Shown: positions 19,543 to 30,100, numbered from the stretch's first letter. The stretch is 64,000 bases of DNA from an uncultured delta proteobacterium (GCA_963785235.1 CAWAUM010000001.1:352001-416000), one strand, 5' to 3'. The notes: a model not told the origin generated them from the letters alone. Made by a program: numbers and translations.

Positions 19543-20952
19543 TTATAGCCCTTCCATAAGCCTTTGAAAATCCCCCGAATCTTCGAGTATCTCGGGTCCT
19601 ATTGTGCGCAAATCGTCAACCTCTTTCTTTTTCAGGCTGAAGGCCGTTGGCATGTTCAGGAAGTATTCCCGCTTTTTGTGATCCTTGATCTGATCAAAAC
19701 CGATATAAATCCCATAGGTATCCACAGGCTCCGGCGGTTTGGCCGGCATACTGGTCCCAGGGCAGTTTTTATCAAGAACATCCCTGCAGTCATCGTAGTT
19801 CTGAGAGTCTCTGCGCCATTCATCGAAGGTGTTAAAGAGCTCCTGCACGGTTTCGAACGAGTAGTTGCTCATGGGCACGGATGCGATAGTATCTACTATC
19901 GCGAACAGCCCAGGGCTGCGCGGTGTCTTGTCAATCTGTGTCTTGGGCTCTGTGCGCGCATCAACGACAATGACCACGATCTTTTTGATTTTTCCCTGGT
20001 TCATTTTATTCGGCAGGTTCCACGCCAGGTCGTTCGATCCCAGGGCCACAAATACGCTGCGAAGTCCGATGTTGTCTGCCACCCCGCCGTCGAGCAGGTG
20101 GATGTATGTGCGCTCATCCTTATTCAGATAGGAGCGTGCAATGCGCGCGCGGTTGAAGCGCGGCGGGTTGTCGAGCAGATCCTTTGACGCCTCCTCCATC
20201 CAGGACGGTTCCTGATAACCGCACGTACCGGCATAATTGTTTACTATCATGGGGGTGAACGCGATGGGGAAGTTCGATGACGCCGCAACGGCACGTGCCA
20301 CGTGAACGCCGTTCAAGTCCGAGCACAGCAGGTCGAACTGATCCTGGGTGAAGGTGAACGGCGAGCCGAAAGTCATATCCGTGGCATTGATCATGATGAA
20401 GGGCCGGCGGGACCGGCTGGTCAGGTCGCCGAAGTCCTTCTGCCGGAAGATCTCCTGGTCATAGATCTCCTCGGCAAGGTCGATCCGGCCGAAGTAGGGA
20501 GAGGCAAGCCGGAACCAGTTTATGGGGTTGAACATGGAGACTATGAGGTCCGACTGGATGTTCCGGTACAAGAACACCTTCTGATATTTTTCCGGATCAA
20601 ACAGCTCGTCACCGAACAGGCCGTAGTAGGCTGCAGTGAAGCTTCCCCCGGAGATGCTGGAGATGACATCCACCTCATCGAGAAGACGTCTCTCCTTGCC
20701 TTCCCACCGGATCTTCGTATCACGCAGTTTCTCCAGCACGCCGTAAGAAAGCGCTGCGGCCCTTGTCCCTCCCCCGGAGAAGGTCAGGATGACGAAGAGG
20801 CTGTCGGAAATTTCCCGTGTGGCGAGGTTCTCAAAGCGGTATCCGGCCTGCGGGTCGTATTGGGCAAGGGGAGGGTTGACCGGATACGTGGCGCAGCCTG
20901 TCAGGATAAGGATGATGACTGCGGCCAGGGCCGTTTGGAGACGGGTTTTCAT
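19543..20952 (-). CDS. Patatin-like phospholipase lipoprotein
   Basis: Lipobox LTGC, SGGGTRAAA, SSISGGS nucleophile elbow, DGG motif. Confidence 0.88.
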   Translation of the reverse strand: MKTRLQTALAAVIILILTGCATYPVNPPLAQYDPQAGYRFENLATREISDSLFVILTFSGGGTRAAALSYGVLEKLRDTKIRWEGKERRLLDEVDVISSISGGSFTAAYYGLFGDELFDPEKYQKVFLYRNIQSDLIVSMFNPINWFRLASPYFGRIDLAEEIYDQEIFRQKDFGDLTSRSRRPFIMINATDMTFGSPFTFTQDQFDLLCSDLNGVHVARAVAASSNFPIAFTPMIVNNYAGTCGYQEPSWMEEASKDLLDNPPRFNRARIARSYLNKDERTYIHLLDGGVADNIGLRSVFVALGSNDLAWNLPNKMNQGKIKKIVVIVVDARTEPKTQIDKTPRSPGLFAIVDTIASVPMSNYSFETVQELFNTFDEWRRDSQNYDDCRDVLDKNCPGTSMPAKPPEPVDTYGIYIGFDQIKDHKKREYFLNMPTAFSLKKKEVDDLRTIGPEILEDSGDFQRLMEGL

Positions 20953-21639: not shown

Positions 21640-22038
21640 ATGAAGAGAATACTGCTTGTGGAAGATGATGAGCATATCCAATTCCTCATCAGGGAAGAAC
21701 TAATGGAAAACGGCTATGAGGTCGCCATAGCATCCGACGGGGTTGAGGCCATGAAGATGCTCCAGGCCGAAGGGGCGTTAAGCCCAGACCTTATCATTCT
21801 GGACATTCGCATGCCCAAGATGGACGGGTTCGAGACCATGGGACACATCCTGAAGTCCAAGATCGACTCTCCCATTATCATCCACTCGGCATACTCGGGC
21901 TACAAGAACCACCCGCTCACCATGGCCGCAGATGCCTATGTGGTCAAGTCGCATAATTTTACCCAGCTCAATGAGACCATAAGCGGTCTGCTGGGGATGA
22001 AAGATCCCATTGCCGTTGTGGCAGGAACTGCTGCATAG
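21640..22038 (+). CDS. Single-domain response regulator (receiver)
   Basis: ILLVEDD, LDIRMPKMDG, SAY, AADAYVVKS. Confidence 0.9.
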   Translation: MKRILLVEDDEHIQFLIREELMENGYEVAIASDGVEAMKMLQAEGALSPDLIILDIRMPKMDGFETMGHILKSKIDSPIIIHSAYSGYKNHPLTMAADAYVVKSHNFTQLNETISGLLGMKDPIAVVAGTAA

Positions 22039-22124: not shown

Positions 22125-23597
22125 ATGAAGCGCCAATCTCTTCTGCGTTCCCTCATCTTCCTGGTCGTCTGCATCCTGGCAGCATCGGATTACACCCAGG
22201 CATACGCTTATTCGGTCCGCAAGGCAGCCTATGCAGGCAGGTTCTACCCGGCATCGAGCGAAGAGCTCACAAAGACCATTGCACAGTTCACCCGGGCTGC
22301 CCAGTCGTCCCCGGTCAGGTTTCCCAAAGACAAACAGCTCAGGGCCCTCATACTCCCCCACGCAGGGTATGTCTATTCGGGGCAGACAGCCGCTTATTCG
22401 GCACCGGTCCTTTCAGGCAGGCATTTTTCCAAGGTGATTGTCATGGGTCCGGACCACAGGGTCGGCTTCCCCGGCGCATCCGTGAGCACTGCCGACGCGT
22501 ATGAGACCCCGCTCGGCACCATCAGGCTCTCCGAAGATGCCTCACGGCTCAGAAAGACCGGCTGGCCGTTCACCTGCAATGCCGCATCCGATGAGGCCGA
22601 GCATTCCGTGGAGGTGGTCCTGCCGTTTCTCCAGACCTATATCAAGGAATTCTCACTAATCCCCGTGGTCATGGGCCCGGGTGATATCAATGTATATGTA
22701 AAGGCCTTTCTGCCCCTCGTGGATGACAACACCCTGCTGGTGGCAAGCTCCGACCTTTCGCACTACCTGCCCCAGGATGCTGCAAAGGTGAGGGACACTT
22801 CTACCATCGACATGATACGGCAGCTCAAGGGCGAGGGACTCACATCTGAGAGCAACAGGGCATGCGGTGCCATACCCATACGGGTGATCCTGGAGTTTGC
22901 CCGCAAAAACAAGTGGGAACCTGTTCTGCTTCATTATGCAACGAGCGGCGATGCGGTCGGTGAGTATGGCAGGGTGGTGGGGTATGCAGCAATCGCCTTT
23001 TTTGGAGGACAAGCCATGGACAAGCACTTTACCAAGGAACAGGGCATGGCCCTGGTGGCACTTGCACGCAGGACCATACAGGAGAACCTGGGTGAGCAGG
23101 CCCCGGCAAACCCGAAGCTTGCCGAGGCCCTTGCTGATGAGGCGCTCAAGGTCAAGGCCGGGACCTTTGTGACGCTGACCATGAAAGGCCAGCTCAGGGG
23201 GTGCATCGGCAGCCTTGAGGCCAGGGAACCCCTGGTGGAAGGCGTCAAGCACAATGCCCTCAATGCTGCCTTCAGGGACCCGCGGTTTTCAGCCCTGACA
23301 AAAAAGGAGCTGGCGAACGTCCATGTGGAGGTGAGCATCCTCACCGAGGCGAAACCCCTGGCCTATACCGATTCCAAAGACCTGCTGAAAAAGCTCAGGC
23401 CGGGCGTCGACGGGCTTATCATCAGACAGGGTTTAGCCGGGGCCACCTTCCTGCCCCAGGTGTGGGAGCAGCTCCCGGACAAGGAGGAGTTCCTGGCCCA
23501 TTTGTGCATGAAGGCGGGCTTGAGCCCTGATGAATGGAAGAAAGGCAAACTCGAGGTCCAGACCTACCAGGTTCAGTATTTTGAAGAGGGGAAATAA
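22125..23597 (+). CDS. amrB: AmmeMemoRadiSam protein B (MEMO1-like) fused to protein A (AMMECR1), with N-terminal signal peptide
   Basis: AGRFYP, PHAGYVYSG, GPDH, EHSVEV, SSDLSHY, ACG, VVGY; then GTFVTL...LRGCIG, AAFRDPRF, EVSILT, ATFLPQVW, LCMKAG. Confidence 0.92.
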   Translation: MKRQSLLRSLIFLVVCILAASDYTQAYAYSVRKAAYAGRFYPASSEELTKTIAQFTRAAQSSPVRFPKDKQLRALILPHAGYVYSGQTAAYSAPVLSGRHFSKVIVMGPDHRVGFPGASVSTADAYETPLGTIRLSEDASRLRKTGWPFTCNAASDEAEHSVEVVLPFLQTYIKEFSLIPVVMGPGDINVYVKAFLPLVDDNTLLVASSDLSHYLPQDAAKVRDTSTIDMIRQLKGEGLTSESNRACGAIPIRVILEFARKNKWEPVLLHYATSGDAVGEYGRVVGYAAIAFFGGQAMDKHFTKEQGMALVALARRTIQENLGEQAPANPKLAEALADEALKVKAGTFVTLTMKGQLRGCIGSLEAREPLVEGVKHNALNAAFRDPRFSALTKKELANVHVEVSILTEAKPLAYTDSKDLLKKLRPGVDGLIIRQGLAGATFLPQVWEQLPDKEEFLAHLCMKAGLSPDEWKKGKLEVQTYQVQYFEEGK

Positions 23598-25713
23598 TCG
23601 CCCAGTCCTGTTCAGCGTCTTAGCAGCCGGCATTTCCTCGGTTGTGGCGCAACTCATATTCATCCGGGAATTCCTGGCCGGTTTCGAAGGAAACGAGTTC
23701 GTCATCGCCCTGATCCTCCTCACCTGGCTGATGTCGACCGGCATGGGCTCGCTCATGGCGCTGTATCTCCAAAGGAGCGCCGGCGGGGCGTCTGTAAAGG
23801 CCCTGGGCCTGATGGCAATAGTACTCGCCGTGCTTCCCACCGTGCTGATCCTCATGGAGAGATTTATACGGAACACCCTTTGGGTTCAGGGTGCTTCCGT
23901 GGGGTTTTACCCGACCCTGGCCTTTGTCTTCGGAACCATCGCGCCTTATGCCCTCCTCATAGGAATCTTCTTTCCCTACAGTCTCTTCGTCCTCAGGTCG
24001 GTCTTACAGACATACCCGGCATCAATGGTTTATGCCATGGACTCTCTCGGGGCTGCAGCCGGTGGGGCGGCCTTCTCCCTTGCACTGGTCCATCTCCTCA
24101 CGCCCTTTGGGACGCTTCTGGCAGTGAACATCATCCTCATTGCAGCCTCGTGCCTCCTCCTGGTCTTTGCCGGGATGAACAGGGAGCTCATTGCAGCCCT
24201 GGTGGTTGCGGCAGCAGCCGTTCATGGGGCGGGTATGGCTCTGGAGAAGGACTCGCTGGGGCCAATGTCAGGCAAGCTCATCTCATACCGGGAATCCTTT
24301 TTCGGGAGGATAACCATCACCAGGGATCAGGAACTCTATACGGTTTTTGTGGACGGGGTCCCGGCCCTTTCAGGTCAGAACGTGAATATTGCAGAGGAAG
24401 CCAGCCACTATGCCCTCAGCCAGCTCAAAAGCGTCAGAAAAGTGCTGCTTGTCTCTTCGGTACCCGGGATCGCTGGATGAGATTAGGAAGTACCGGCCTG
24501 AAGAAATCGACTATGCCCAGCTCGATCCCTATCTGAGCGAGGTCGAAATGAGGTTGGGACTTGTCAAACCCGTACAAGGACTCCGGGTTATCGCCGAAGA
24601 CGGCCGGGCATACCTGAAGCGTACGGACAAGAAGTATGACGCCATCCTCGTGAACTACCCCGAGCCCAAGACCTTCCAGACAAACAGATATTTCACCGAA
24701 GAATTCATGCGGCTGGCCAAGGCCCACCTGAACCAGGGAGGCGTGCTGAGTTTCTCGGTGGAAGGCTACGAGAGTTATCTGTCCGCCACGGCGCGCTCTC
24801 AGGCGTCTTCGCTGTACAATACTGCTTCGGCAGTGTTTTCCCACGTGCTTATCCTTCCGGGACAGAGGATATATTTTATCACAAGCGATAGCCCATTAAG
24901 CAAGGATATCCCCGGACTCCTTGCAGGCAAGGGAATCAAGACAGATTACATCGGGTATTACTTCTCGGGCGACGTCAGCCAGGACAGGATGAGCAGCCTC
25001 ATGAAACTCCTGGATCCCCATGCACCCAGGAATACTGATCTGAAGCCCTATATCATGAGGGTTGCCCATGAGGGATGGTTTGCAAAGTACTCATCGTATC
25101 CTCTTGTTTTCTTTATAGCCCTGGCCTGCTTCTTTACCATGTACCTTACCCGTTTGCGGCAAGAGGAATTCGTCTTGTTCACCACGGGATTCGTAAACAT
25201 GGGCAGCGAGATTATCACCATCTTCAGCTTCCAGATCCTCTTGGGTTTCCTCTATATGAAGATCAGCCTTATCATAACGGTCTTCCTGGCCGGTCTCATC
25301 CCGGGAATACTCTTTGGCCGGCGCTATAAAGGGAGCATCAGGCAAAGTCTTATCATTTCCGATGGCCTTTTGGTGCTGCTCCTGATCATGTTCTTAGGCC
25401 TTCTCATTACATTCTCCCAGGGATTGAACGGGTTGTTCTTCTATTCCTTTGCCTTTCTCATTTCCGGTCTGTGCGGGTTCCAGTTTCCCCTGGTGGCAGG
25501 GGCTCACGGCGGACGGCAACACCGTTGCTGCCCGGGCATTTTCCGTGGACCTTGTGGGGGCGGCCCTGGGCATTATCCTGCTGAGCGCCCTGATCATCCC
25601 TGTCTTCGGAATTATTGTTGCCTGCACGGTCTTGATCGCAATCAAGCTTGCGAGTATTATTATCCAAATAAGCCATGGCAAAGATCACTCGGAGGAGCAT
25701 TCCTTCGTTCTAG
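23581..25713 (+). CDS. Membrane spermidine-synthase-like protein (TM bundle - SAM-MTase-like domain - TM bundle); frameshifts near 24470, 25500 and 25696
   Basis: AQLIFIREFL..FEGNE N-terminal pattern, DGRAYL, YDAILVNYPEP, NRYFTEEF; assembled from ORFs 23530-24480, 24389-25930 and 25449-25745; TTG start overlaps the amrBA stop. Confidence 0.75.
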
Positions 25714-26854
25714 TATGGCGCTTTGCATCGCCGGCACCACGCTGAATTGCTGGCCGGGATTTGTCCGGTGTGCCTTTGCGAACCCTTTGGCCGACATCAA
25801 GGGCAGTATCTTTAAAGGCGATGCCCCAAGCGGCTCTGGAGATATTCGAAAGAGGGGATGTTCTACCAGAAAAGTTATGGAAACAAGGTGGCCTGCCTGG
25901 TCTGCCCCAACCACTGCGAGCTCTCGGTAGGCGACAGGAGCGTATGCCGCTCCAAGGTGAACCTCGGAGGGAAACTTTACAGCATTGCCTATGGGAACCC
26001 CTGTTCCGCCACAATTGATCCTATCGAGAAAAAGCCGCTGTTCCACTTCAAACCACGAACAAGGGCCTTCTCCATTGCCACAGCCGGTTGCAATCTGAGG
26101 TGCCTTAACTGCCAGAACTGGGAGATCTCCCAATCCAGGCCCGAGGATATGAGCACGTCTGAGCTTTTCCCCCTGAAGTGATAAAGGCTGCCCGCGCATC
26201 CGGATCGGCCAGTATTGCCTACACCTATTCCGAGCCCATCTCTTTTTATGAATACATGTTCGACACTGCGCCTGGAAGCACGAAAAAACGGCATTGCAAA
26301 CCTCATGATCACCAACGGCTACATCAACACCGAGCCTCTGAACAAGCTCTGCACGGTTCTCGACGGGGCCAATGTCAACCTCAAGTCATTTTCCGACGAT
26401 ATCTACCGAAGGCTCAACGGCGGCAGGCTCGACCCGGTCCTGACAACCGTGAAGACGCTCCACGAGCGCGCCGTCCACATGGAGATCACGAACCTCCTGG
26501 TGCCCGGCTATACCGACAACGAGGACATGGTGAAACACATGTGCTCCTGGATCCTGAAGAACGTGGGGCCCGATCATCCGCTCCACTTCCTGCGGTTTTT
26601 CCCCAAATACAAGCTCGACCGGCTGGCGCCAACGCCCATCTCCACGCTGACCCGTTTCCGGGATGTCGCCATGAAGGAAGGCATCAGGTACGTATATGTG
26701 GGAAATGTCGCTGGGCACGAAGGGAACAACACCTACTGCCATTCCTGCGGCAAACTCCTCCTGGAGCGCAAGGGGTATTTCATCTCGACCTACAATCTTG
26801 ATGGGAGCAGGTGCAGATTCTGCAAGGACCGTAGTACCGGGGGTGTGGGGGTGA
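25675..26854 (+). CDS. amrS: AmmeMemoRadiSam radical SAM enzyme with N-terminal Tat signal; about five frameshifts
   Basis: CLVCPNHC, DPIEKKPLFHF, GCNLRCLNCQNWEISQ (CxxxCxxC), IAYTYSEP, ITNGY, EITNL, YVYVGNV, CHSC/CRFC, terminal PGVWG*. Confidence 0.88.
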
Positions 26855-26892
26855 TGGTCGTTCATGAAACGACTGAATAGGCTGTTCTTTAT

Positions 26893-27118: not shown

Positions 27119-30100
27119 TTATGCATGCACATGTCCGGCGAGGTATCCGCGTATCACCCTTTGAAGCTTGTCGAGATAGATGTAGGTCACAGGGGTGATG
27201 TAGAGCGTCACGATCTGGGAAAAGACAAGCCCGCCCACCACGGCAAGCCCCAGCGGGCGTCTGGATTCTCCGCCTGCACCCAGGCCGATGGCTATGGGGA
27301 GCGTGGCCATGAGGGCGGACATGGTGGTCATCATGATGGGCCGAAACGGATGAGTGCGCCCTGAAAGATCGCCTCCTCCGGGCTCTTCCCCTCCTTCCTC
27401 TCTGCATCCAGGGCAAAATCGATCATCATGATGGCATTTTTCTTCACGATCCCGATGAGCATGATGATCCCCACCAGGGCATACAGATTGAGATCAATCC
27501 GGAAGATGAGCAGGGTCACGAGCGCGCCGATGCCTGCCGAGGGCAGTCCTGAAAGGATGGTCAGCGGATGGATGAAGCTCTCGTAGAGGATGCCGAGAAC
27601 CACATAGATAACCAGTATGGCCACCAGGATCAGCACGCCCAGGCCCACCATGGATGATTCAAAGGCCTGTGCCGTACCCTGGAGGCTGCCGGTAACGGTG
27701 TCGGGCAGGATAGTGTTCGCGGCCTTTTCCACCTCATTCAGTGCGTCACCCAGTGCCTTGCCCGGGGCCAGGTTGAAGGACAGGGTTACGGCGGGGAGCT
27801 GTCCCAGGTGGTTGACGGACATGGGTCCCACGGTGCGATCCAGGTTCACTACCGTACTGAGAGGGACCAGGGTGCCGGTAGCGGACCGGATATAGAGCAG
27901 CGAGAGTGCCGATGGGTCTGCCTGATACTGCTGCTGCGAGCTCCATGATGACCTGGTAGTCGTTATTGGGGGCATAGATGGTGGATACCTGGCGGGAGGA
28001 GTACGCGCTCGCCGAGGGCCTGTTCTATCTGGAGCACGCTGAAGCCCAGGGCTGAGGCCTTGTCCCGGTTGATGCTGACGGTTATTTGCGGGTTCTTGAG
28101 CTGGAGATCGCTCGTCACATCCTGGAAGCCCGGCAGGTCCTTCAGCCTGGCCTCCAGCAGGGGCGCATACCGATACAGTTCGCTGATATCCGGGCCCTGG
28201 AGGGCGTACTGGTACTGGCTCTTGGTTTGATACCCGCCGATGCGTATGGGCGGCGGGTTCTGCAGATAGGTCTGGATGCCGGGTATGGTGGCGAGCTTGG
28301 GCCTGAGGCCCTGGATGATCTCGTCAGCGCTCTTGCTGCGCTCGCTGCGCGGTTTCAGCCGGAGCATCAAGCCGCCCGTGTTGGACGAACTGCTGCCGCC
28401 GCCCCCGCCCACGCGTGACATGACGATATCCACATTTTCGGTCCTGCTGCACAATGCGGGAAACCTTGTTCTGGTAGACCTTCATGGCCTCGAACGATGT
28501 GCCCTGGGCCGCTTCTGTTGATCCGGTGATCTGGCCTGTATCGGCGCTCGGGAGGAACCCCTTGGGCATGACCACATAGAGGTAGACGACCCCTGCCAGG
28601 AAAAGAAAGGATACCATAAGGGTTGAGCGCCGGTGATGCAGTACCCATTGAAGGCTTTTTTCATACATGCTGAGCATACCGCTGAAAAAACGCTCGGATA
28701 CCTGGTAGGCCTTGCCATGCTGCTCTAAGCCTGCAGGGTCGAAGCATGATGCTGCAGAGCATCGGCGTAAGGCTCAGGGACACGAACCCGGAGATCAGGA
28801 CGGCAACTACAATGGTTACGGCAAATTCATTGAGCAATCTGCCTATGATGCCGCCCATGAAGAGCACCGGGATAAAAACGGCCACCAGGGAGAGCGTCAT
28901 GGATATGATGGTGAAGCTGATCTCCTTTGACCCGTTTAAGGCTGCATCACGCGGGCTCTCGCCATGCTCCATGTGCCGTACGATATTTTCCAGCATGACA
29001 ATGGCATCGTCCACGACAAAACCTACGCACAACGTGAGCGCCATGAGGGAAAGGTTATCAAGGTTGTATCCTGCCAGGTACATGACCGAGAAGGTCCCCA
29101 CGATGCGACATGGGCAGCGCCAGGCTGGGGATAATGGTTGCAGAGAGGTTCCGCAGGAAGAGAAAGATGACCAGGACCACCAGAACCAGCGCGACGAGCA
29201 GCGTGATCTGGACATCGTGGATGGATTCCTTGATGGATGGCGGACCGGTCGTACATGATGTTCAGGCTCATGGATGCAGGGATCAGGGCCTTATAGCTCG
29301 GGAGGATATCTTTGATGGACTGTACTACCGCTACCGTGTTGGTGCCCGGCTGGCGCTGGATGGCAAGGACTATTGCCCGTTCGTTGTTGAGCCATGAGGC
29401 AGCCTTGTCATTTTCGACACTGTCGATTATCCGGCCCAGGTCGCCAAGCCGTACCGGCGATCCATTCCGGTAGGCGACGATCAGCGGCCGGTAGGCATCG
29501 GCGTTTTTGAGCTGTCCTTCACGTCTGGACCGTGAATGCCTTGTATTTGCCCCACAGCGTGCCTGTGGGAAGGTTGGCATTGCCGGATTCAATGGCGTCG
29601 GACACTTCATTGATCCCGACTGACCTGGTGGCAAGGGCCTTGGGGTCGAGCTGGACCCGGACGGCATATTTCTGTGACCCATATACCCCCACTTCCGCCA
29701 CGCCGTTGATCATGGAGATCCGTTTCGCAAGGAGATTTTCCGCATATTCGTCTACCGTGGTCAACGGCAGGGTCGAAGATGTCAGCGCAATAAAGAGGAT
29801 AGGTGACTCTGCCGGGTTCACCTTCCTGAAGCTCGGGGGCGACGGCATGTCCTCGGGCAGGTGACGCGTGGCCGACGAAATGGCTGTCTGGACGTCCTGG
29901 GCCGCTGCGTCTATGTTCCGGTTGAGATTGAACTGCAGGGTGATCTGGGTGCTCCCCTGTGAGCTCGATGAGGTCATGGAATCGATGCCGGCGATATTGG
30001 AAAACTCCTTTTCCAGCGGTGTTGCAACGGAGGAGGCCATGGTCTCCGGGCTTGCTCCCGGAAGGCTTGCAGATACACGGATGGTGGGGAAATCCACATT

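Follow-up and report, generated by a model that had tools for sequence, protein, structure and literature searches.

A predicted extracytoplasmic AmmeMemoRadiSam module organized around a SpeE-like membrane protein in an uncultured delta proteobacterium

Radical S-adenosylmethionine (SAM) enzymes are regarded as strictly cytoplasmic, as they need SAM, a low-potential reductant and the assembly of an iron-sulfur (Fe-S) cluster. Among them is the enzyme of the AmmeMemoRadiSam triad, in which an AMMECR1 protein (AmrA, TIGR04335), a Memo protein (AmrB, TIGR04336) and a radical SAM enzyme (AmrS, TIGR04337) occur together, a triad without known function in bacteria as well as in humans (MEMO1, AMMECR1). 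Known Fe-S proteins exported by twin-arginine translocation (Tat) include hydrogenase small subunits and ferredoxin subunits of the NrfC/HybA type, and modules of the NosR/NapH and DsbD/CcdA types carry electrons to the periplasm; no demonstrated Tat substrate is known among radical SAM enzymes. The comparative study of Memo-AMMECR1-radical SAM contexts by Burroughs et al. 2019 (J Biol Chem 294:10211) is said to link Memo to nucleotide-base and isoprenoid modification. In the literature that we searched we found no exported AmmeMemoRadiSam and no periplasmic, extracytoplasmic or secreted radical SAM enzyme, with the proviso that this main comparative study or its supplements may cover membrane-linked or secreted contexts; the literature on AMMECR1, Memo and radical SAM together yielded a passing mention only, and papers matched by the system's name appear to deal with other subjects. 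Here we analyzed a 64,000-nucleotide (nt) stretch of the genome of an uncultured delta proteobacterium of the sulfate-reducer type (GCA_963785235.1, CAWAUM010000001.1:352001-416000; hereafter the window), in which the AmrA, AmrB and AmrS families lie together in an operon-like run at 22125-26854 with one extra gene, encoding a polytopic membrane protein (MEM), between them. From the sequences and structure models we propose, with moderate confidence, that this locus encodes a second, extracytoplasmic version of AmmeMemoRadiSam built around the membrane protein (Table 1).

The window locus shares with canonical AmmeMemoRadiSam all three families above their cut-offs, the radical SAM core and the AMMECR1 motif LRGCIG, which is kept in the Memo-AMMECR1 fusion protein. 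In profile searches the open reading frame (ORF) of this fusion scored 233.1 bits against AmmeMemoSam_B (TIGR04336, cut-off 26) and 215.5 bits against AmmeMemoSam_A (TIGR04335, cut-off 99). The broken pieces of AmrS, 25858-26181 and 26215-26880, separately reached 103.4 and 198.6 bits against AmmeMemoSam_rS (TIGR04337), and a six-frame genome search that read through the breaks gave 306.1 bits (cut-off 220) with two internal stops; the radical SAM domain PF04055 scored 34.1 bits (cut-off 29.5). The locus differs from the canonical systems in three respects, namely an export leader on each soluble component, a gene for a 14-helix SpeE-like membrane protein between the genes, and a post-leader stretch in AmrS, D-I-K-G-x-I-F-K-G-D-A-P-x-x-L-W-K-W-S, which is conserved among the orthologues and absent from canonical AmrS. 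The closest solved relative of AmrS is pyruvate formate-lyase activating enzyme (PFL-AE, PDB 3c8f/3cb8; profile match E 1.2e-17), with which the CX3CX2C cluster motif aligns and to whose GGE motif E187 in the TYSEP stretch of AmrS corresponds; PFL-AE is a leaderless cytoplasmic protein of 245 amino acids (aa), whereas AmrS has added Cys-rich N- and C-terminal parts and the Tat-type leader. The hydrogenase small subunits and NrfC/HybA-type proteins are likewise Fe-S proteins that are loaded with cofactor and begin with a twin-arginine leader, but they are electron carriers. Leaderless canonical copies of AmrS (C1:531328-532357), AmrB (C2:204357) and AmrA (C1:326660) are present elsewhere in the genome, and the window module is therefore an extra, specialized set.

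The export reading starts from the N-terminus of AmrS. An earlier reading of this stretch, made from sequence alone, had placed the amrS start at ATG 25675 and had found, after removal of one base, a twin-arginine leader with an A-x-A cleavage site. Read from this ATG to 25827 with a single four-letter step (AGGA taken as X), the window translation is MAKITRXAFLRSSMALCIAGTTLNCWPGFVRCAFANPLADIKGSIFKGDA, in line with the earlier reading, and the motif T-R-X-A-F-L-R, with X at the break, stands against T-R-R-A-F-L-R in intact orthologues. Orthologous AmrS proteins begin with MAKITRRAFLRSS..., MAKLTRRTFLRSS..., MAQFTRRTFLRSS..., MITRRSFLRAG... and MASLSRREFLRLC..., and across the orthologous loci (23 in total, 17 newly fetched and six collected earlier) the pattern [ST]-R-[RK]-x-F-[LI]-[KR] was found in 21 of 21 AmrS proteins, 12 with R-R and nine with R-K, which bears out the leader. 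The R-K leaders read T-R-K-E-F-[LI]-K (L054, L056-L058, L060 and L064-L067) and are kept across several families. The hydrophobic region of these leaders is rich in Gly, Ala, Ser, Thr and Cys, small residues occupy -3 and -1 in most of the 21 orthologues, and tatC is present in the genome (223 bits, cut-off 132.7). Behind the leader, C139, C143 and C146 of the CX3CX2C motif and E187 are invariant in 20 AmrS orthologues; judging by residue conservation, the radical SAM core is under selection.

The partner protein carries a leader of another kind. A hydrophobic leader of the general secretory (Sec) type was present in all 21 AMMECR1 or Memo-AMMECR1 partners that were scored among the 23 loci, in agreement with the Sec-type signal proposed earlier for the fusion. 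The best 12-residue hydrophobicity was higher in the partner leaders (median 2.80, range 1.88-3.27, n = 21) than in the AmrS leaders (median 1.71, range 1.39-2.26, n = 20; Mann-Whitney P = 1e-7, a value overstated since the rows are related), and weakly hydrophobic Tat leaders beside strongly hydrophobic Sec leaders are a known difference. In 12 of the 17 newly fetched loci the upstream gene encodes AMMECR1 only (222-266 aa), again with a hydrophobic leader, and four of five genomes with such AMMECR1-only operons have, away from the operon, a separate Memo gene whose product starts with a hydrophobic leader, besides a gene for a leaderless Memo. Next to these stand-alone, leader-bearing Memo genes we saw by eye an adjoining gene for a thioredoxin-like lipoprotein (WCxxC) in two of three loci (L071:571-1089, L073:2598-3125) and an amidohydrolase-like gene starting M..D.HTH.FP in all three (L071:0-524, L072:2820-3668, L073:3122-3829).

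The third component, MEM, is represented in the window by overlapping ORF pieces (23530-24480, 24389-25930 and 25449-25745) with many hydrophobic or transmembrane stretches and a weak Spermine_synth domain (PF01564, 35.0 bits, cut-off 22.9). An AlphaFold2 (AF2) model of the G008 orthologue, built from an alignment of 23 sequences (predicted local distance difference test score (pLDDT) 84.8, predicted template-modeling score 0.86), shows an alpha/beta domain (residues 249 to about 520) flanked by seven helices on either side (23-242 and 525-714). Foldseek matched this model to the Thermus aminopropyltransferase 1uir (E 1.7e-10, target TM score 0.67-0.69) and then to many spermidine synthases; with the whole model, the matches listed were of the SpeE type only, with none for the transmembrane part, and phmmer related MEM to AtSPDS2 at E 1.7e-7. 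In all 23 orthologues the short loops on the side of the N-terminal tail hold more Lys and Arg (median 19, range 14-27) than those on the side of the domain (median 2, range 0-4); because of these counts, by the positive-inside rule, the SpeE-like domain is predicted to face the periplasm, which adds a third line of evidence, independent of the others, for this compartment. Two functional motifs of SpeE, the GGGDGG loop and the catalytic motif DSSDP, are both replaced; the consensus reads SGGxGxT and DLPEP at these places, and the window reads SSVPGIAG and NYPEP. The acidic residues after strands 2 and 3 are invariant.

MEM also stands apart from the publicly named membrane-bound SpeE-like proteins (PRK03612, NF037959), whose N-terminal helix bundle and SpeE fold it matches weakly, in its second seven-helix bundle after the domain, its replaced GGGDGG and DSSDP motifs, its predicted periplasmic domain and the association of its gene with those of AmrS and AMMECR1. 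It lies far below the equivalog cut-offs (TIGR00417, 27.3 against 249.55 bits; PRK03612, 37.6 against 472 bits, with E 2.5e-06 and 8.7e-10), and NF037959, the "fused MFS/spermidine synthase" family, reached 24.6 bits (cut-off 40) over the SpeE part only. Public names of these proteins are "spermidine synthase", "fused MFS/spermidine synthase", "PABS domain-containing protein" and "hypothetical protein", and any likeness to the major facilitator superfamily (MFS) appears to come from the public name only. A literature search for spermidine synthases fused to MFS or transmembrane parts returned nothing relevant. A comparison of the two helix bundles as a possible internal repeat gave no convincing match (hhalign E 0.012, probability 3.6%).

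A direct pairing of AmrS with MEM was predicted by co-folding mature AmrS (residues 36-392) with the putative periplasmic domain of MEM (residues 243-522). The pair scored 0.86 (runs 0.88, 0.85 and 0.86) compared to 0.28 for the best of three controls, and thereby cleared a mark that 58 of 80 solved complexes attain, as do 2 of 110 mismatched pairs, a rough calibration as our own alignments were used. The runs shared at least 96% of their contacts, with a partner pLDDT of at least 88, and docking of AmrS on the SpeE-like domain is thus supported at the level of the model. In this model Y416 of MEM contacts AmrS residues 110, 111, 135, 148, 150, 151, 159, 160 and 185, which adjoin C139/C143/C146 and the TYSEP stretch; in PFL-AE, the glycine loop of the substrate binds at the corresponding place. 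Position 416 is Tyr in 22 of the 23 MEM orthologues and Phe in the remaining one.

The module is largely kept as a unit across lineages. An open AmrS frame of 393-405 aa was found in eight genomes of the same genus or family, and intact orthologues measure 702-726 aa for MEM and 390-401 aa for AmrS. The order of leader-bearing Memo-AMMECR1, membrane protein and Tat-type AmrS recurs in G008, G004, G003, G012 and G019, and records that bear the titles Desulfomonilia, Desulfobacteraceae and Desulfococcus sp. show it too, the leader-bearing AmrS orthologues spanning several families of the phylum. In an evenly chosen sample of 401 genomes of the phylum, relatives of MEM at E <= 1e-20 occurred in 154 and close orthologues (E <= 1e-130) in 19. 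An AMMECR1-type gene adjoined the MEM gene in all 23 orthologous loci, and AmrS followed directly downstream in 19, two of the other four loci being cut by the contig end and two lacking AmrS, so that the proposed co-occurrence of leader-bearing AmrS and AMMECR1-type genes with the SpeE-like gene was largely recovered. Beyond MEM, AMMECR1 (or the fusion) and AmrS, no gene family was common to the 23 loci across lineages. Among more distant paralogues, the MEM gene of L068 has no AmrS or AMMECR1 neighbor, and at L069 an AmrS that looks leaderless is encoded on the opposite strand at a distance of 1.4 kb. L070 (G394:C15) holds a distant MEM relative of 1020 aa (29% identity) with genes for a Tat-type AmrS (SISRRLFVRR) and a Memo-like protein behind it, and the link of MEM to an exported AmrS therefore reaches beyond the orthologue group. 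By these gene neighborhoods, the link of MEM to AmrS and AMMECR1 holds within the orthologue group (E <= 1e-130) and only partly outside it.

To place these proteins in the wider family, the G008 AmrS was used as phmmer query against 1.84 billion representatives, yielding 7586 matches at E <= 0.001. A phmmer-anchored classifier of the N-termini of the best 150 of the 7586, a set biased to the query's clade and no census, assigned 30 to the Tat type, 5 to a hydrophobic type and 10 to long N-terminal fusions beginning in a membrane segment; 81 were without extension, 15 had an extension without recognized signal, 2 were fusions without membrane segment and 7 were fragments. The partner domains in 10 scanned fusions were FMN_bind (5), NapH-like Fer4_5 (3), DsbD_2 (3), CBM_11 (1) and Reg_prop (1). 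The FMN_bind, Fer4_5 and DsbD_2 fusions with membrane modules are among P0008, P0018, P0020, P0026, P0028, P0004 and P0021, and P0008 and P0018 consist of just an N-terminal membrane segment, FMN_bind and AmrS. In a FastTree phylogeny of 163 core AmrS sequences (8 short rows excluded), all 66 rows of the Tat or membrane type fell within one side of 78 rows (support 82), and none of the other 85 rows had such an N-terminus. The fused domains, which lie in the same half of the tree as the window's AmrS, are related to those of NosR/NapH-type and DsbD/CcdA-type modules, neither of which occurs in the window operon or the 23 orthologous loci; they suggest a dedicated electron supply at or across the membrane in those relatives and agree with a demand for reducing power there or on the outer side. 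Two relatives, from Desulfatibacillaceae and Planctomycetota metagenome-assembled genomes, are publicly named AmmeMemoRadiSam system radical SAM enzyme, and others PFL activating enzyme. Triple fusions were seen in both orders among P0025, P0010, P0053 and P0064; the P0025 type, of 835 aa, runs leader-Memo-AMMECR1-AmrS with a Sec-looking leader, and the other, of about 1050-1150 aa, runs AmrS-AMMECR1-x-Memo without a leader.

The claim of the sequence-only reading that this variant works outside the cytoplasm thus found support in silico from the Tat-type leaders (21/21), the Sec-type leaders (21/21 scored), synteny, tatC and the co-fold. According to the mechanism that we favor, AmrS would leave the cytoplasm through Tat, already folded and loaded with its Fe-S cluster, and the Memo-AMMECR1 protein through Sec. 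Once in the periplasm, AmrS would sit on the SpeE-like domain, with the tyrosine loop around Y416 at the mouth of its barrel beside the cluster motif. The two transmembrane bundles might then bring something that the periplasm lacks, be it SAM, another adenosyl compound or a membrane-embedded substrate, and the Memo and AMMECR1 domains would carry the chemistry to its end on a lipid or envelope target. The electrons may be drawn from the low-potential redox pool in the periplasm of these anaerobes and, in other lineages, delivered through the FMN_bind, NapH-like or DsbD-like modules fused to AmrS. Of these steps, localization and the pairing of AmrS with the membrane protein are the well-supported ones, which we hold to be somewhat better than an even bet; SAM supply, reductant and substrate are guesses. 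The earlier suggestion, in which the membrane protein would provide or recycle SAM or else present the substrate, is speculation to which the co-fold lends some plausibility.

Several observations weigh against this mechanism. We know of no periplasmic SAM pool or SAM exporter, and no conserved redox partner or SAM-related neighbor was found beside the module in the 23 loci. Loss of the glycine-rich loop from the SpeE-like domain in the window's genus weakens a SAM-binding role in the window's own organism. The co-fold score reflects model confidence rather than a measurement, adjacent AmrS is missing from two of the 21 loci with enough flank, and nine of the 21 AmrS leaders have R-K instead of R-R, a change that in E. 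coli slows export without blocking it. In the wider family, the best 150 matches lean towards the query's clade, the key split has a support of 82-83 from FastTree only, and the Sec-looking leader of P0025 indicates that hydrophobic N-termini may not always mean export, because Sec export of an Fe-S enzyme fits poorly with known cluster assembly. A bolder extension, which we regard as possible but doubtful, is that the whole AmrS clade is extracytoplasmic, with MEM exporting or holding an adenosyl cosubstrate on its SpeE-like domain and its tyrosine loop plugged into the AmrS active site, while other lineages are wired to FMN_bind, NapH-like or DsbD-like conduits.

If this bolder extension is true, it would be the first extracytoplasmic radical SAM chemistry, and the Memo/AMMECR1 pair would gain a tractable, envelope-located substrate. 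Export signals on the enzyme and both partners together with a predicted docking on a periplasmic domain of a transporter-like protein challenge the cytoplasm-only view, and the module would imply an unrecognized route across the membrane for SAM or a pre-loaded cofactor. For the triad itself it offers a new handle, namely a predicted compartment, physical partner and candidate contact residue.

The absence of a SAM source and of a dedicated reductant from the 23 loci would also be explained if the exported AmrS performed no radical SAM chemistry and, in the chemistry of periplasmic Memo-AMMECR1, acted as a scaffold or carried electrons on its Fe-S cluster, with the SpeE-like domain binding some other ligand. 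The replacement of GGGDGG and DSSDP in all orthologues and the loss of the glycine-rich loop in the window's genus agree with such a role, but the SAM-contacting CX3CX2C motif and the GGE-aligned glutamate are invariant in the 20 orthologues, which is unexpected if SAM is not bound, and we consider this alternative unlikely. The contacts of Y416 beside C139/C143/C146 and the TYSEP motif raise a second alternative, in which AmrS would be a dedicated maturase of MEM that acts on the Y416 loop, spends one SAM per event, possibly carried through Tat on the cluster, and leaves a protein radical or a modified residue, with MEM as the true catalyst. A periplasmic SAM pool would then no longer be required, the near-invariance of Tyr at 416 would be accounted for, and the closest solved relative, PFL-AE, acts on a protein loop. 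Against it, neither a glycine nor another known radical-site motif is conserved in the Y416 loop, canonical AmrS systems function without MEM, one orthologue has Phe at 416 and the contact comes from a single model only; we give it a slim chance.

The difficulty over SAM and reductants would likewise vanish if the leaders were vestigial or served as membrane anchors, with the module at the cytoplasmic face of the membrane where both are at hand. A remnant Tat motif is known from NarG, nine of 21 leaders carry R-K, and Sec-looking leaders on Fe-S triple fusions, P0025 among them, can hardly be taken for true export signals. This explanation is nevertheless improbable in our view, as the AmrS leaders keep the full n-h-c layout with small -3/-1 residues in most orthologues, the partner proteins have classic Sec leaders, and in all 23 orthologues the Lys and Arg counts put the soluble domain of MEM, the predicted docking site of AmrS, on the trans side.

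The membrane gene and amrS are broken in the window, and their reconstruction relied on comparison with L036, an orthologous contig of the same genus with 94.8% nt identity to the window. Relative to L036, against which the fusion ORF has no indel, the membrane gene has one extra base at each of 24475, 25514 and 25694, and amrS differs at 25694 (+1), 25823 (-1), 26168 (-1), 26271 (+1) and 26824 (+1), a total of seven distinct single-base indels with 25694 common to both genes; at 25823 and 26168 a base is missing from a C run. The extra base near 25696 predicted by the sequence-only reading was located at 25694, within GGAGGAG, and is absent from L010 and L036. We also compared contigs from four public runs of two studies (X1-X4), which at 90-99% likeness represent relatives and another strain than that of the window. 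The base at 25694 was left out by both covering contigs (X2 and X4; X1 and X3 have no cover there), a C was inserted at 25823 in three of three and at 26168 in two of two, and bases 26273 and 26824 were each left out in the single covering contig (X4); run X3 has depth at 26824, but the one-base deletion is placed at 26828 instead. Removal of the one base ends the upstream membrane protein at TAG 25711-25713, as had been foreseen, in agreement with the orthologue C-terminus ...HGKDHPESIPSF; the correction was right without being the sole one, as amrS has four further indels and the membrane gene two. With all indels removed, the two genes have 726 and 392 codons, exactly the orthologue lengths. 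Frameshifts of the same type break the downstream RND efflux pump gene (27119-29215, minus strand) into at least five ORFs (27346, 27937 and 28011 relative to L036), and an in-frame stop also interrupts the second amrS copy of the genome (G000:C1:531328-532357) as matched in six frames, an indel not being demonstrated there; the whole assembly looks indel-prone. The frameshifts in the window are evidently assembly errors rather than biology, because the neighboring pump gene is broken in the same way and because the public-run contigs carry the corrected state at every indel place they cover. That the operon is decaying, with real frameshifts and with MEM and AmrS as pseudogenes, could be argued from seven indels over two genes and is very improbable given the similar indels in the pump gene, the stop in the distant second amrS match (where no indel was demonstrated), the net restoration of orthologue length, the corrected contigs of relatives and codons that are otherwise conserved at 94.8% nt identity to L036.

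The three genes overlap, as had been noted, by 39 nt (25675-25713) between the membrane gene and amrS and by 68 nt between the fusion gene and the membrane gene from ATG 23530, or 17 nt from TTG 23581, at which MEM may start instead.

Table 1. Positions of the module's features, counted from the first letter of the window
Feature	Position	Strand	Basis or remark
Memo (AmrB)-AMMECR1 (AmrA) fusion	22125..23597	+	490 aa, intact; TIGR04336, TIGR04335, PF01875, PF01871
Sec-type leader of the Memo-AMMECR1 fusion	22125-22208	+	MKRQSLLRSLIFLVVCILAASDYTQAYA; best 12-residue hydrophobicity 3.07
Polytopic membrane protein (MEM)	23530..25713	+	726 aa in orthologues; PF01564, AF2 model, intact orthologues; broken at 24475, 25514 and 25694
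SpeE-like domain of MEM	about 24256-25097	+	between two 7-helix bundles
AmrS radical SAM enzyme with Tat-type leader	25675..26854	+	392 aa in orthologues; TIGR04337; broken by five indels
Tat-type signal peptide of AmrS	25675..25780	+	MAKIT-R-(R)-A-F-L-R, weakly hydrophobic h-region, basic c-region (VRC), A-F-A cleavage-type site
Extra base (assembly error)	25694		within the twin-arginine codons and the 39 nt that amrS shares with the membrane gene
CX3CX2C radical SAM cluster motif	26089..26112	+	CNLRCLNC; translation of ORF 25858-26181

Two neighboring genes were also observed. A single-domain response regulator lies directly upstream of the operon (21640-22038, plus strand); it falls outside the conserved module, because upstream response-regulator-like genes were found only in L029, L030 and L032, all of the same genus. 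Further upstream, a 469-aa ORF on the minus strand (19543-20952) has a lipoprotein-like start (ILILTGCATY) and the elements GGGxR...GxSxG, resembles a patatin-type lipase by eye and has a counterpart at the same position in G008 (L029:798-2213).

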